Both the position numbers and the translations under genes were made by a program. Positions 2,520 through 9,957 of a stretch of 64,000 nucleotides of DNA are shown piece by piece (position 1 is the stretch's first letter; every line of letters starts with the position of its first letter). The notes under the pieces are model-generated. The model saw nothing but the letters and a program-made list of their open reading frames with translations. It did no database searches and was not told the origin of the DNA. Where the stretch lies: assembly GCF_001187865.1 (NCBI RefSeq), contig NZ_LGIT01000001.1, forward strand, positions 42,554 through 106,553, given 5' to 3'. This stretch comes from Klebsiella sp. RIT-PI-d. Its GTDB lineage: Bacteria > Pseudomonadota > Gammaproteobacteria > Enterobacterales > Enterobacteriaceae.

Positions 2520-2801
2520 ATGGCGACCATAACTACCAGCGTCATGTTGATGCGCTGGCCGCTGGTAAGCGCCGGGCTGATGTTTTTAGCCAGCACATTA
2601 AACATTCAGTTTCGCAAAAGCGATTATGTTGGGTTAGCAGTCATTAGCACGCTTCTGGGCATGATTGCTGCCTTCTGGTTCGCGATGAACCTGCTGGGGA
2701 TCTCAATGGTGGATATTTCTGCCATTTTGCATAACGCCAAAGGGGTGATGGTTGAAACGATGGGACAGTTGCCGCCAGAGTGGCCTGTCGTTGTGACGTA
2801 A
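2520..2801 (+). CDS. yjcB: YjcB small inner-membrane protein (93 aa)
   Basis: 93-aa ORF MATITTSVMLMRWPLVSAGLMF... matching YjcB length and sequence; synteny. Confidence 0.8.
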   Translation: MATITTSVMLMRWPLVSAGLMFLASTLNIQFRKSDYVGLAVISTLLGMIAAFWFAMNLLGISMVDISAILHNAKGVMVETMGQLPPEWPVVVT

Positions 2802-3087
2802 TGATGCATAACCGGAAAGACTGACCAGCCCCAAAAAGGGAGCTGGTCGGGATATAACGTTCTTAGAACGGTTAGACTTTACTGATGCATTACGACTAAA
2901 TGTGTCAGTAATAACAACAGGCTATATGTGAAGGAATGTGGGTGTCTCAATAAAAAAATATCTCAAGTGTCATTTTTTCGTAAAATTGTTCATAACATTC
3001 CCTGTTAAACATTACATTTTTGTCAGCGACTAATGAGTCGATAGATCAGCCAAAAAACTAAGTTTGCATGGGGCAATTCTGTTTTCG

Positions 3088-3987
3088 TTAAATTGCCTGC
3101 TGCCTCTTAATTTCAGCCAGTAAGCCCTGAACTAACCCTGCAGCAAAACGCTGCCGCCCAACAAGTTCATCTTCGTCGTCCTCGCCGTAGAAGCGTGCGT
3201 AGGCGACAGCCCCCACCTTCTCATAGCCTTCGCCATGCTCGTCGTCCCCAAAGCGTCTTGAGAGCGCCGCGAGGCCGTCCAGAATAGCTTCTGGGTGCTG
3301 CCCGGAACAAATACGTTCAACGAATAGCGCTGCAACTTCCTTTATTGAGCCTGAATATCTGATCACGTGGATTAGGTCAGCAGCATCCTTCCTCTCCTGG
3401 CGTTGATCCAGAGCCAGCGCTTTCAAAATGACAAATGCTGGCACGTCCGCAAATCGCACGACATCTACTGATAAGCCATCACCGTCCAGGAGTTGGGCAG
3501 AAATTTCTTTCTGCTGATACCAATCGTAAACAATCCGGGCATGTTTGATAGTGAGTGCCGATACTTTTTCCCCATCGACGCTAATGGTCCGGCCAGGTTC
3601 CTCATCGCCAGCATCCCGGAGAAGTTCAACGACTACCTCAATGCGGTCATTGACCTTGCGGCGCCAGCGCCAGGATGCAGACTTTCCCTCTTCGACCCAT
3701 CGGGTGAATTCCCGTGCTTTTAATTGCTGCGCAAGGCTAGTATATTCATTGCCAGAAGCCAGTACTTCCAGGTTTAACACAATGTCCACGTCAGAAGTTC
3801 CCGCATGCACAGGAACATCAGGCGGAGTCGCTGGCGTGAGATAACGAGGAACCAGGCCACCGACAAGTCTCAGGGTGTCCTTAAGATTCCCAAAGGCGCT
3901 TAGTAATGTGAGCAATGTCCTCTCACAGGCCAAAGTGACATCTTGATCGTATCCAGCCGCTGTACGAGGCTTCAGTCCTGTTGCCAT
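3088..3987 (-). CDS. Nucleotidyltransferase AbiEii/AbiGii (DUF1814) toxin-like protein, 299 aa
   Basis: N-terminal NTase-like motif LVGGLVPRYL...AGTSDVDIVLN (GG-x-SDxD); 16-bp overlap with upstream gene; not part of E. coli core at this locus. Confidence 0.6.
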   Translation of the reverse strand: MATGLKPRTAAGYDQDVTLACERTLLTLLSAFGNLKDTLRLVGGLVPRYLTPATPPDVPVHAGTSDVDIVLNLEVLASGNEYTSLAQQLKAREFTRWVEEGKSASWRWRRKVNDRIEVVVELLRDAGDEEPGRTISVDGEKVSALTIKHARIVYDWYQQKEISAQLLDGDGLSVDVVRFADVPAFVILKALALDQRQERKDAADLIHVIRYSGSIKEVAALFVERICSGQHPEAILDGLAALSRRFGDDEHGEGYEKVGAVAYARFYGEDDEDELVGRQRFAAGLVQGLLAEIKRQQAI

Positions 3988-5102
3988 AATGACTCCAAAC
4001 GTTTTCTAAGATGGTCAGCTAATTCTTTGTTGCGGCCTCGCCCATCCAGTAAGTCCAGATAAAGAATGTAAGGGCTTGCGAAAAAGACAGAGTCCCCCAG
4101 ATGCATATCCCGGTAAAGTAAGCTCGCAGGTTCGCGTTCAATGAGCGTAACGTTCGCCCCTTTACTGACGGGTTTCAGGTCTAGCAGGTTAGCCATCCTC
4201 TCTGTGTAGCCCTTGGGTACTATGATCTCTGCCCCTTCAGTACTGGTCAGCAATGGAGTGTAAACATTAGCCGCCGCAGCGCCTGTCAACGCCCACGGGT
4301 AATCCACATTCTGACGATCTATCCGTTCCGCAAGGTGAGTTAGCAGATGCTCGGGATTTTCGACAAAGGTGTACCACTTCGACTTCTTGTCTTTGCGCTT
4401 CTTCCATTGTTCAGACCAGGCGTCCAAAAGCTTACCAGGGCGAGTAAGCATTCTGCGCTTGTTCGGCCCTCCACCAGTAGACTCCACCCACTCACGCAAC
4501 GTCAACTCCTTCAATACGAGAGAGCAGGTATACGAGGAAGTCTCAGCTTGTTCTGCTAACTCTGTACCAGTTAGCCACCCATGACTATTCTTCAAAAGCG
4601 CATGGATGACACTTTCACGAGCCTCAGTGAAAAGGTCAATGTCCTGTGTGTTCTTTTTAGAACGATGAGAAGGCTTTTCAATATTGATGAACCAGCCATC
4701 GTGCTTTAGATAAAGGCTGCCCCCCAGCTCGAATGAGGCGATATTCTGTTCCTTAAGCTCCTGCTTAGCGCCTGGACTCAATACGCCTGCCGCGAGCAGT
4801 CCAATAGCTTCATGACAATGATGAATTTCTTGTATGCTTCTCTGGAGCTGGTAAACAGCATTCCTTAAGTCTCTTGGGTAAACCTTCTTTTTGATCTCAA
4901 CGAAAACGTATAGGGTTTTACCCGGAGTCTCAATCTTGATCATGCCATCAAGCTCTACCCCATGAAGCTCATATGAAGCATCACTCACTGAGGCTTCGGG
5001 GCCAAATGCCTCAGCAAGAGCCTCCACCAGCGCATCCAGCATCTGCCTTTCAAATTCAAACCCTGAACGATGTGAGTAATGCTTCATAACATTAGCCTCC
5101 AA
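3972..5102 (-). CDS. AbiEi-like antitoxin/regulator with N-terminal PD-(D/E)xK-like domain, 376 aa (extended)
   Basis: Central wHTH-like segment (WLTGTELAEQAETSSYTCSLVLKELTLREWVE) and C-terminal AbiEi-C-like region; N-terminal ~150 aa with D...ExK pattern (VELDGMIKI...LYVFVEIKKK); translationally coupled to the DUF1814 gene. Confidence 0.5.
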   Translation of the reverse strand: MEANVMKHYSHRSGFEFERQMLDALVEALAEAFGPEASVSDASYELHGVELDGMIKIETPGKTLYVFVEIKKKVYPRDLRNAVYQLQRSIQEIHHCHEAIGLLAAGVLSPGAKQELKEQNIASFELGGSLYLKHDGWFINIEKPSHRSKKNTQDIDLFTEARESVIHALLKNSHGWLTGTELAEQAETSSYTCSLVLKELTLREWVESTGGGPNKRRMLTRPGKLLDAWSEQWKKRKDKKSKWYTFVENPEHLLTHLAERIDRQNVDYPWALTGAAAANVYTPLLTSTEGAEIIVPKGYTERMANLLDLKPVSKGANVTLIEREPASLLYRDMHLGDSVFFASPYILYLDLLDGRGRNKELADHLRKRLESLWQQD

Positions 5103-5355
5103 TGCATTATTAGCTGCACAGCAAAAAAGGGAGAATCGGCTAAACTTTAGTTCTTATACTATCACTAACCGATCAGCTGGCAATCTTTTATAGACTTAGC
5201 TTTATGTTAATCAACAAGGAAAAGCTTTTAATCAAAAACTGTTGCCAGAGTTGATATCACGATTATCCAAAAAGCGTGGCAACATAACCAGGTTGCTAGC
5301 CGTCGCTAAAGATTGTCAATTGATACTTGGCACTTTTTTCAGACAGTAAAAATGA

Positions 5356-5397
5356 AAAACCCCTGAATTATCAGGGGCCTGAATATTTATTTTTTTT
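5356..5397 (-). terminator. Rho-independent terminator downstream of ssb (hairpin CCCCTGA-atta-TCAGGGG flanked by A/T runs, probably bidirectional)
   Basis: Perfect 7-bp GC-rich stem followed by T-run on both strands, 22 nt after ssb stop. Confidence 0.6.
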
Positions 5398-5418
5398 CAA
5401 CTGACTCACAAGTCAACT

Positions 5419-5964
5419 CTAGAACGGAATATCGTCGTCAAAGTCCATCGGCGGTTCGTTAGACTGTGCCGGGGCTGACTGCTGCTGCTGAGGACGAGCC
5501 TGCCCACCGCCGCTAAACTGGCTGCCACCGCCCTGAGACTGCTGCTGTGGCTGCTGAGGTTGACCCCAACCGCCCTGCTGGCCGCCGCCTGCCGGCGCGC
5601 CGCCGCCCTGAGGACGTCCGCCCAGCATTTGCATCACGCCGCCGATTTGCGGGACGTTGATCTCAGTGGTATAGCGTTCCTGACCACCCTGATCGGTCCA
5701 TTTACGCGTCCGCAACTGACCTTCGATGTAGACCTGGGAACCTTTACGCAGATACTCGCCGGCTACTTCTGCCAGTTTGCCAAACATCACCACACGGTGC
5801 CATTCAGTCTGCTCTTTTGTCTCACCGGTCTGCTTATCACGCCAGGATTCGGAAGTAGCCAGCGTGAAGTTAGCAACTGCACCACCACTCGGCATGTAGC
5901 GTACTTCCGGGTCCTGCCCCAGATTACCGACGAGAATCACCTTATTTACGCCTCTGCTGGCCAT
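5419..5964 (-). CDS. ssb: Single-stranded DNA-binding protein SSB (181 aa), C-terminal DFDDDIPF tail
   Basis: Near-identical to E. coli SSB incl. Gly/Gln-rich linker and acidic tip. Confidence 0.95.
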
Positions 5965-9174: not shown

Positions 9175-9615
9175 ATGTCTGGCACTCACTGGCATACCCG
9201 GTTCGCCGTTATCGGCTGCATTTTTCTGCTGTCAGCCTGCTCACTGACCGATAAATACAATGCTCAGGCTTATCAGCAATTGAAAGCGCTGCAAACGTCG
9301 TGGCAGCACTTCCTGGAGGATGCCGCTGTCGCACCGTTAGATGCTGAACGCATCGCGCAGGACGATAGCCAACTACGCCAGGGGTTTGATGATGCGTTGA
9401 TCCAGGCAGCCCTGCTTAATGACTCGCTGCGGATTGAAAACCTGACGTTACTGGAAGACGCCTATATTCGTCTTCATGCGCGATTACTCCAGCAGAATCA
9501 TTCTCTTTCACCGGTTCAAACACATTTATATGGGCAGCAGGCGCAAATGGCCTGGCAACTGGCTATTGAGGGCGAATGTCTGCGCCCGGGTGCTGCCTGC
9601 GATGGGGAGAAATAA
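9175..9615 (+). CDS. Hypothetical lipoprotein (146 aa; signal peptide with lipobox LLSAC)
   Basis: ORF with N-terminal hydrophobic segment and L-S-A-C lipobox; no family recognised; absent from K-12 at this site. Confidence 0.6.
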   Translation: MSGTHWHTRFAVIGCIFLLSACSLTDKYNAQAYQQLKALQTSWQHFLEDAAVAPLDAERIAQDDSQLRQGFDDALIQAALLNDSLRIENLTLLEDAYIRLHARLLQQNHSLSPVQTHLYGQQAQMAWQLAIEGECLRPGAACDGEK

Positions 9616-9618
9616 ACT

Positions 9619-9957
9619 ATGCTTCTGGCCGATTCACTGAATACGCTTTTAACCCCGGATGCCCCTCAACCAGCTGGATTTGGCGCTGCAGCGGCGGAAT
9701 TTATCACGCTGCTGGATACTGCGATGTATGATGAGGATGAAGGCATCCGCAAAGCCGGATCGTTAATCGTCCTGGCGCTACGTGAAAAAGAACGCGGCTG
9801 GCTCACCGACGACGATCTGCGGGTGTTGCTGGAGGGGCAGCGCGACATCGCCCGGCTGCGGGCGAATAATGCGGAAATCCCGCTCCGCAGTCGCATCCAG
9901 TCAGTGGTGATTCGCTTGATTGATATCACTCTGGCATCGCTGATTGCCGCCCTCTGA
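9619..9957 (+). CDS. Hypothetical cytoplasmic protein (112 aa), 4 nt downstream of the lipoprotein gene
   Basis: ORF tightly coupled to the upstream lipoprotein ORF; acidic, no recognisable domain. Confidence 0.5.
   Translation: MLLADSLNTLLTPDAPQPAGFGAAAAEFITLLDTAMYDEDEGIRKAGSLIVLALREKERGWLTDDDLRVLLEGQRDIARLRANNAEIPLRSRIQSVVIRLIDITLASLIAAL

Follow-up and report, generated by a model that had tools for sequence, protein, structure and literature searches.

We analysed a 64-kb window of DNA from Klebsiella sp. RIT-PI-d (the window being the whole stretch under study, in which all positions below are counted), a strain whose closest relatives are Superficieibacter. On the minus strand of the window, positions 3088-5087 hold a module of two overlapping genes that adjoins ssb: the first encodes a three-domain partner protein and the second a putative toxin of the nucleotidyltransferase type (Table 1). 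The two genes are a member of the COG4861–COG4849 gene pairs, whose association carries a STRING score of 99% (Dy et al. 2014, PMC3985639) and is touched on only briefly in later papers, and which are listed as toxin–antitoxin (TA) or abortive infection (Abi) genes in defence-gene catalogues (PMC7251935). Both open reading frames (ORFs) are full length and contain every family-invariant residue, and ratios of nonsynonymous to synonymous substitution rates (dN/dS) of 0.09-0.25 across the two genes indicate purifying selection.

An earlier note on this DNA, made by reading the sequence, had described a 299-residue ORF overlapped by 16 nt by a 376-residue neighbour. The 299-residue ORF is present in the ORF listing (3088-3987, minus strand), the neighbour ends at 3972 and the overlap is seen when the minus strand is read; since the toxin ATG lies at 3987-3985 and the TGA stop codon of the partner at 3974-3972, with a GGAG 5 nt upstream of the toxin ATG, this 16-nt overlap is real. 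The length of the partner needed correction. Its mechanical ORF (3972-5102, minus strand) starts from a TTG at 5102 that overlaps the GGAGG Shine-Dalgarno sequence and has no ribosome-binding site of its own. Because GGAGG precedes the ATG at 5087, because the TTG overlaps that site, because NCBI and the gene predictions made on contigs identical or related to this one agree on 371 residues, and because the homologues of the partner align starting at the Met of ATG 5087, the partner almost certainly starts there and is 371 residues long. NCBI names it 'type IV toxin-antitoxin system AbiEi family antitoxin'.

Table 1. Positions of the two genes, of the partner's domains and of the flanking and upstream features in the window.
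Feature	Positions	Strand	Basis or remark
Putative toxin gene, 299 residues, DUF1814-class (COG4849-like) nucleotidyltransferase	3088..3987	-	ORF listing and motifs
Partner gene, 371 residues, three domains (COG4861 / PF09952 'AbiEi_2'), putative antitoxin and autorepressor	3972..5087	-	WP_049838477.1
N-terminal domain of partner, residues 1-145, predicted PD-(D/E)xK nuclease fold	4653..5087	-	D47, E64, K66; invariant Y70-P-R-D73; S104-x-G106
Putative winged helix-turn-helix (wHTH) of partner, MarR/TrmB type, residues ~160-211	4455..4610	-	Recurrent sub-threshold profile matches
C-terminal PF09952 (AbiEi_2) domain of partner, residues ~214-362, presumed toxin-neutralising	4002..4448	-	Pfam match
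Shine-Dalgarno sequence GGAGG	5096..5100	-	8 nt upstream of ATG 5087; conserved in upstream-region alignment
Sigma-70-type promoter: -35 TTGCCA (5183-5178), 16-nt spacer, extended -10 TG-n-TAGTAT (5161-5156)	5156..5183	-	Position conserved in relatives
Candidate operator O2, palindrome TTTGCTGTGCAGCTAA on minus strand, between promoter and Shine-Dalgarno sequence	5110..5125	.	1 mismatch to TTAGCTGNNCAGCTAA
Candidate operator O1, CCAGCTGATCGGTTAG, at the promoter-spacer position of the relatives' palindrome TTAGCTGnnCAGCTAA	5165..5180	.	Degenerate here, 5 mismatches
GCTAA/TTAGC half-site array at -113, -56, -27 and -9 relative to ATG	5092..5200	.	Positions conserved across loci
Intrinsic terminator, now serving ssb	5357..5380	-	Absent from empty site, so insert-borne
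Proximal direct repeat CTAGAACGG, 3' end of ssb	5419..5427	.	ssb stop codon here TAG, not TAA
Distal direct repeat TTAGAACGG	2863..2871	.	Reverse complement of CCGTTCTAA, the last 9 nt of uninterrupted ssb
Non-coding tail of insert, downstream of toxin gene	2872..3087	-	No ORF of at least 50 residues, no Rfam match

The putative toxin

Public sources annotate the 299-residue protein as hypothetical. By its motifs and predicted fold it is a DUF1814/AbiEii-class nucleotidyltransferase. All four DUF1814 motifs (I-IV; Dy et al. 2014, PMC3985639) are present, and we assessed their conservation in an alignment of 46 homologues with 62-96% identity. Motif I (V42-G43-G44) and motif II (D66-V67-D68), both of the polymerase-beta type (hG[GS]...DhD), are invariant in the 46 sequences and are separated by a spacer of 21 residues, compared with 15 in AbiEii (PMC3985639). 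Motif III, which in COG4849 has the form KLxAaxxR (PMC3985639), reads K189-A-L-A-L-D-Q-R196, with R196 invariant and K189 at least 90% conserved, and in motif IV (+DxxD; K200-D201-A-A-D204) the residues K200, D201 and D204 do not vary. The predicted fold is the DUF1814 fold shared with solved toxins, the closest of which is Mycobacterium tuberculosis MenT1; since the COG4849 branch has MenT1 as its characterised member, we file the 299-residue protein there.

A further residue, T64, stands two positions before D66. It is invariant (46/46) and is also found in distant members from Agrobacterium and K. pneumoniae (GTLDVD). The phospho-acceptors of MenT1 (T39, with D41) and AbiEii (T65, with D67) occupy the same position, as presumably does S78 of MenT3, and T64 is a candidate regulatory phospho-acceptor by this correspondence.

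The GG...SDVDIV motif that the earlier note had read in this protein is present, and the DUF1814/AbiEii signature that it drew from it holds for the four motifs and the predicted fold but not for the Pfam profile PF08843, which stays below its threshold. Profile searches alone came close to leaving the protein outside the family; the motifs and the fold place it inside. Weak PF08843 matches were obtained for 21 of the 46 close homologues (best E-value 5e-4). Further, plasmid homologues with 24-47% identity, encoded behind a partner of ~360 residues, are annotated by NCBI as AbiEii/AbiGii family, so the link to the Pfam family is transitive. Searches of the PDB with the toxin sequence and with a profile returned nothing meaningful, and in structural terms the protein is linked to known families through fold comparison only.

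The partner protein and its family

The partner combines an N-terminal domain, a putative central wHTH and a C-terminal PF09952 domain. The PF09952 match is secure (32.4 bits against a cut-off of 21, at residues 219-367 of the 376-residue ORF), and the homologues of the partner score 21.5-41.2 bits. The central winged-HTH-like segment recognised in the earlier note corresponds to MarR/TrmB-type matches that are sub-threshold (MarR_2 at 19.3 bits against a cut-off of 27; TrmB, HTH_11 and HTH_Crp_2 likewise) but come up repeatedly, in an unchanged position, across most of the partner family. A PDB profile search gave a weak match of this segment to TrmBL2, and no other part of the partner is as well conserved.

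Membership of the partner in the AbiEi family, which had also been proposed, stands only in part: PF09952 (AbiEi_2) matches above threshold, but none of the canonical AbiEi families PF13338, PF11459, PF09407 and PF17194 was found on the protein, even at E-values up to 1. A PDB search with a 50-member partner profile recovered neither AbiEi (6Y8Q) nor Rv2827c, and COG4861 and COG5340 have been reported to share no sequence identity (Dy et al. 2014, PMC3985639). The AbiEi name of PF09952 comes from gene neighbourhood. In PADLOC-DB 2.0 the partner matched only PDC-M29B (E-value 0.0018, N-domain residues 51-98), a PADLOC model of a candidate defence protein, and CARF3 (E-value 0.039, residues 154-226); both matches are too weak for interpretation.

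The N-terminal domain was modelled with AlphaFold, and the model matches PD-(D/E)xK nucleases, with an alpha-beta-beta-beta-alpha-beta core, in agreement with the restriction-endonuclease-like domain suggested in the earlier note from a D...ExK pattern (ELDGMIKI / VFVEIKKK). That pattern is present, and it supplies an intact D47, E64, K66 triad in this copy. Structural neighbours of the model include the defence effector nucleases Cap4, Can2, Card1, HamA and Shedu. Sequence comparison of the domain with characterised nuclease families gave nothing beyond noise (NucS_C, E-value 0.05-0.24), PDB searches with single sequences and profiles of the full partner and of the N-domain returned nothing meaningful, and we found no description of a nuclease-like domain or PD-(D/E)xK fold in COG4861 proteins in the searchable literature.

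Conservation of the domain was counted over 176 non-redundant members. Asp is found at position 47 in 95% of them and Glu at position 64 in 87%, and Lys is found at position 66 in 46%, the alternatives being Leu, Ile or Val; position 67 is Arg or Lys in 86%. The Y70-P71-R72-D73 and S104-x-G106 motifs are essentially invariant. The full D/E/K triad is kept by 75 members, and 77 (44%) retain Asp and Glu without the Lys. Because a canonical D...E-x-K or D...E-x-R persists in distant branches (Delftia, Agrobacterium and K. pneumoniae), the ancestral state of the domain looks catalytic. The N-domain is also the fastest-evolving part of the partner, with a mean column entropy of 2.1 bits as against 1.25 and 1.5 for the other two parts and a dN/dS of 0.22-0.25 as against ~0.1 elsewhere, values that still denote purifying selection. 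This pattern fits a domain that matters, though its chemistry is maybe not uniform across the family. Our best guess is that it acts as a DNA-binding, oligomerisation or sensing module, and it may still cleave DNA in many members, this one included.

The earlier note had treated the long N-terminus as an extension. It is not peculiar to this copy: the three-domain build is the family norm. Searching with the toxin brought up ~80 loci, in Gamma-, Beta- and Alphaproteobacteria as well as outside these classes, where the gene immediately before that of the transferase encodes a partner. The two genes overlap in most cases or are only a few nucleotides apart, and the partner is 355-385 residues long almost everywhere; the N-domain and C-terminal profiles match the same ORF in 79 of 85 loci. 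Toxins that are only 24-29% identical to that of the window (from the Agrobacterium pAt plasmid and a K. pneumoniae plasmid or integrative and conjugative element (ICE) region) are likewise preceded by a ~360-residue partner with the N-domain. A search of 1.84 billion cluster representatives with the N-domain profile yielded 417 proteins (clusters at 50% identity), and because nearly all of the full-length ones are 350-376 residues long with the domain at the N-terminus, the N-domain appears to be confined to this architecture.

Plasmid records that carry homologues number 112 and include conjugative as well as non-mobilisable plasmids, with some copies beside repC/parB or ICE genes; in phage records no homologue of the toxin was found. 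Other copies lie among defence genes, next to AbiJ in Roseivivax and next to a restriction enzyme and Qat in Delftia. On the Delftia acidovorans plasmid (NZ_CP065697.1, 230950-236463; L093) the pair leads straight into co-oriented genes, namely one annotated as a restriction endonuclease, one of the poly-gamma-glutamate hydrolase family and the Qat anti-phage system, which is a defence-island context. A Pfam scan of 150 neighbouring ORFs from ~30 loci revealed no conserved third gene, the commonest neighbour being LysR (5 of 150); since the neighbours vary by locus and a conserved third gene is absent, the pair is, as judged from gene content, self-sufficient.

Some genomes hold more than one version of the module. 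The Hydrogenophaga sp. ANAO-22 chromosome (NZ_CP159956.1) carries three diverged copies (L027, L061 and L067), and two further genomes carry two (L050/L070 and L064/L073), the toxins of these multicopy genomes being 44-57% identical to that of the window. Multiple diverged copies per genome resemble paralogous TA families that need mutual insulation.

Insertion site and upstream region

Contigs that encode a UvrA 100% identical to that of the window show the ssb region both with and without the module. One from a second strain (L088) carries the same two genes at 98% identity, and two others (L089 and L091) lack them and have yjcB followed by ssb 62 bp further on. Because yjcB stands directly next to ssb in these two contigs, the gene pair is an insertion, and a discrete one, at the ssb-yjcB junction, as the earlier note had held. 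When the empty sites are aligned to the window, homology reaches 2871 and restarts at 5420. The insert measures 2,556 bp, and on either side of it stands one copy of an 8-bp direct repeat, TAGAACGG (2864-2871 and 5420-5427); extended by one base, the two copies are identical at 8 of 9 positions. The eight bases TAGAACGG of the empty site match both flanks and occur as a single copy in L089 and L091. Read along ssb, the repeat is CCGTTCTA[G/A] and comprises the last two sense codons of the gene (Pro-Phe) plus the stop codon, which is TAG in the copy attached to ssb and has remained TAA in the displaced copy.

Several related modules also lie next to ssb. Those of Raoultella and Acerihabitans are ~90% identical to the window from 5215 down to 2861, and their distal ends finish with CCGTTCTAA or ACTGTTCTAA, CCGTTCTAA being the form in one Acerihabitans locus (L008). 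The Raoultella module also follows ssb, though a fragment of rve (transposase/integrase core) and a further small ORF stand between the two, and the ssb-proximal DNA of this island is 76% identical to the region 5317-5469; the modules of Pectobacterium and Erwinia likewise adjoin ssb. None of the complete E. coli genomes carries the module. The insert contains no recombinase gene and no tRNA-like sequence, its terminal inverted repeats are at chance level only, and an Rfam scan of 2600-5600 found nothing.

Since the end of ssb is likewise repeated at the distal border of the Acerihabitans and Raoultella modules, the element appears to target the 3' end of ssb, and the comparison as a whole suggests a decayed, stripped-down site-specific island. 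This fits better than a transposon or a miniature inverted-repeat transposable element (MITE), a reading that we dropped on account of the chance-level terminal repeats and the missing recombinase gene. Given that SPI-4 in Salmonella is recorded at ssb/soxSR (PMC3175032), the remark in the earlier note that the junction is an integration hotspot, being the site of SPI-4, is reasonable.

Two features lie outside the insert. Between pdeC (yjcC) and yjcB, at ~1700-2400, there is ~830 bp of AT-rich DNA (GC content 0.35-0.40) with no ORF longer than 62 residues, and a similarly long pdeC-yjcB gap is found in the empty-site strains. Between uvrA and yjbR are two plus-strand genes, 9175-9615 for a 146-residue protein with a lipoprotein-like N-terminus and 9619-9957 for a 112-residue protein, neither with a Pfam match in precomputed tables. 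Every contig with the identical UvrA (L088-L092) has the two genes, which are not known to belong to the uvrA-yjbR junction of E. coli K-12.

The operon has a single sigma-70-like promoter ahead of it (TTGCCA/TG-n-TAGTAT). We aligned the 175 nt before the start codon from 11 loci of at least six genera, with coding DNA down to 67% identity; they span Raoultella, Acerihabitans, Pectobacterium, Erwinia, an enterobacterial metagenome-assembled genome, Advenella, an alteromonad and Pseudomonas. The alignment shows invariant column blocks. The palindrome TTAGCTGnnCAGCTAA, near-perfect in the relatives, fills the spacer between -35 and -10 (O1), and a second palindrome, TTTGCTGTnCAGCTAA, lies just ahead of the Shine-Dalgarno sequence (O2), where the CTG-CAGCTAA columns are invariant in the 11 regions. 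There are further GCTAA/TTAGC half-sites, one of them inside the spacer between the Shine-Dalgarno sequence and the ATG. The distances at which half-sites are conserved are -110, -92, -81, -56, -27 and -9, and per 140 nt of upstream DNA we count four half-sites here and four to seven in the relatives, as against 0.3 expected. A scan of the whole window for TTAGCTGNNCAGCTAA with up to three mismatches gave 4 matches where 2.4 are expected, which is no enrichment; the case for an operator is built instead on cross-species conservation and local half-site enrichment. On these grounds the GCTAA/TTAGC array resembles the operator of an autorepressor, with the putative wHTH as the obvious candidate for its reader; the conserved palindromes in turn lend indirect support to the wHTH assignment.

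The operator suggested in the earlier note was a different one. The inverted repeat TGTTGCCA/TGGCAACA exists (5240-5247 and 5277-5284), but the homology with the modules of Raoultella and Acerihabitans begins only at 5215, downstream of the repeat, which those modules lack, and one of its arms falls within a terminator-like hairpin at 5279-5296. We therefore rejected it as an operator, since it is not conserved and lies outside the DNA shared with related modules; the GCTAA/TTAGC array is conserved in its stead.

Proposed function and known systems

We consider it probable, without being confident of it, that the module is a horizontally acquired, self-contained two-gene operon of the toxin–antitoxin type from the COG4861–COG4849 branch of the AbiE/MenAT family. 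It is analogy with the characterised relatives that suggests toxicity, antitoxicity and phage defence. The single promoter at 5183-5156 drives the partner gene and then the overlapping transferase gene. Free transferase would, as MenT1, MenT3 and Streptococcus agalactiae AbiEii suggest, add nucleotides to the 3' ends of tRNA, and translation and growth would stop. The C-terminal PF09952 domain of the partner would bind the toxin and neutralise it, either by covering its active site or by bringing about auto-phosphorylation of T64, or in both ways, and the wHTH would bind the palindromes and repress the operon. Were the partner to disappear upon phage infection, under stress or together with the element, the toxin would be freed. 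Modification of tRNA by MenT toxins and antitoxin-induced auto-phosphorylation have been described (PMC7450476, PMC11375011, bioRxiv 10.64898/2026.01.19.700257). For AbiE itself the mechanism has been revised to complex formation with induced auto-phosphorylation, that is, to type VII, and the 'type IV' label that the earlier note applied to the module is now disputed even there (bioRxiv 10.64898/2026.01.19.700257).

Several observations weigh against such an operon. For the 299-residue protein, Pfam PF08843 reaches only 13 bits against a cut-off of 22.5 (E-value 0.099) and covers residues 176-255 only, and NCBIfam and PADLOC give no match. Pfam and PDB searches revealed no resemblance in sequence between the PF09952 part of the partner and canonical AbiEi or proteins of solved structure, and a conserved nuclease-fold domain has no obvious need in a plain antitoxin. 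MenT1, the closest structure, has a small and unrelated antitoxin, so the mechanism of neutralisation is not simply transferable. The AbiE system of S. agalactiae gave no protection against 32 coliphages (bioRxiv 10.64898/2026.01.19.700257), and phage defence is therefore not a given. O1 is degenerate in the window while O2 is intact, so regulation here may differ, and autorepression is perhaps weaker in this strain. Finally, a search of the accessible literature found no experimental study of any COG4861–COG4849 pair.

It is possible, though distinctly less probable than the operon just described, that the pair is a selfish addiction or stabilisation module without a role in phage defence, surviving here as the cargo of a decayed integrative element. 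An insert without a recombinase, of which the Raoultella version keeps only an rve fragment, would agree with this, as would the 112 plasmid records, with some copies next to repC/parB or ICE genes, and the lack of phage-borne copies. Plasmids are stabilised by AbiE (PMC3985639), and the failure of S. agalactiae AbiE against the 32 coliphages (bioRxiv 10.64898/2026.01.19.700257) points in the same direction. However, lactococcal AbiE was discovered as an abortive-infection system, relatives such as SanaTA and RlegTA are cited as affecting T7 (bioRxiv 10.64898/2026.01.19.700257), and several copies of the present pair lie among defence genes; stabilisation and defence are also compatible. Such copies, in Delftia and Roseivivax, would also suit a two-component defence system, in which the partner would be an effector or sensor nuclease that cuts or recognises invading DNA and is coupled by its wHTH and C-terminal domains to release or control of the transferase. 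The pair would in that case exceed a toxin with a passive antitoxin. We regard this as unlikely. It draws on the confidently predicted nuclease fold of the N-domain, on the intact D47, E64 and K66, on the retention of Asp in 95% and of Glu in 87% of the 176 members with a canonical D...ExK in distant branches, on purifying selection (dN/dS 0.22-0.25) acting on a domain apparently confined to this architecture, and on Cap4, Can2, Card1, HamA and Shedu as fold neighbours. But within the partner constraint is weakest on the N-domain, which has no above-noise sequence match to characterised nuclease families, and since 44% of the members retain Asp and Glu with the catalytic Lys replaced by Leu, Ile or Val, an obligatory hydrolytic role is argued against. 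Further, if the leading gene of an autorepressed operon coded for a nuclease without regulation, an immunity mechanism against that nuclease would be required.

A dual-effector form of defence, in which the COG4861 'antitoxins' would be active PD-(D/E)xK nucleases and the recognition or cutting of foreign or damaged DNA would release the tRNA-modifying transferase, seems to us quite improbable. If true, it would constitute a sensor-nuclease antitoxin, which has not been described for AbiE/MenAT systems. We give hardly any credence to the view that the module is an inactive remnant, its genes intact by chance and the system no longer working in this strain: although O1 has five mismatches to the family consensus and the surrounding element has shrunk to 2.5 kb and lacks mobility genes, neither ORF is truncated, all family-invariant residues are in place, dN/dS is far below 1, the two genes recur at 98% identity in L088, and the promoter, the Shine-Dalgarno sequence and O2 are intact.

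As a toxin–antitoxin-type operon, the module extends a known family and belongs to an already catalogued branch of AbiE/MenAT; current ideas are not overturned. The core of the earlier interpretation was largely right, while the feature that it highlighted as unusual is the standard build, the operator is another one and the start codon has moved. Mildly new, in our estimation, are the fold assignment of the N-domain, the conserved operator, T64 and the exact insertion at the ssb stop codon with its empty sites. Current research is much concerned with DUF1814 toxins (MenT, AbiEii), which arrest growth by modifying tRNA and are controlled by an unusual, antitoxin-induced auto-phosphorylation, and the existing work is all on COG2253–COG5340 pairs and MenT1. 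The COG4849–COG4861 pairs are a widespread sister class, present on chromosomes, plasmids and ICEs of many Proteobacteria, that the AbiE models of PADLOC (2.0 vintage) miss. The present locus offers a compact 2.5-kb enterobacterial example with natural strains that have or lack the module, and it provides as handles a candidate phospho-acceptor (T64), an operator (GCTAA half-sites and TTAGCTGnnCAGCTAA palindromes) and a nuclease-fold antitoxin domain with a D/E/K triad.

Compared with other COG4861–COG4849 pairs, the module has the same gene order, overlap, domains and sizes (~360-375 plus ~290-300 residues), with no essential difference. MenT1 (Rv0078A) resembles the 299-residue toxin in belonging to the COG4849 branch and in having a Thr two residues before the first catalytic Asp (T39 there, T64 here), but at ~195 residues it is ~100 residues shorter, part of the additional length here being the 21-residue spacer between motifs I and II. 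Its antitoxin MenA1 is a small helical protein without a wHTH, PF09952 or nuclease domain, unlike the 371-residue partner, and MenAT1 is not transcriptionally autoregulated (PMC11375011). The AbiEi–AbiEii systems of S. agalactiae and Lactococcus (COG5340–COG2253) and MenA3–MenT3 are likewise bicistronic, with the regulator first and a DUF1814 toxin with motifs I-IV second. Their antitoxins join a wHTH to a separate C-terminal neutralising domain, as we propose for the partner, and these operons are autorepressed through inverted repeats in the promoter, which are unrelated in sequence to the operator of the window. Their antitoxins are nevertheless proteins of ~200 residues with two domains from other Pfam families, whereas the partner has 371 residues, three domains and no detectable similarity to COG5340, and the toxin of the window is of the COG4849 type and not of COG2253. 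The N-domain, for its part, shares its alpha-beta-beta-beta-alpha-beta core with Mrr/NucS/Hjc-like nucleases and with the effectors Cap4, Can2 and Card1. Like these nucleases it has an Asp at the start of strand 2, an ExK in strand 3 and a small S-x-G-A motif after strand 4; it differs from them in showing no significant sequence similarity and in the loss of the Lys in about half of the family. Its fusion partners are a wHTH and a putative toxin-control domain instead of a CARF/SAVED sensor or a domain for DNA recognition.

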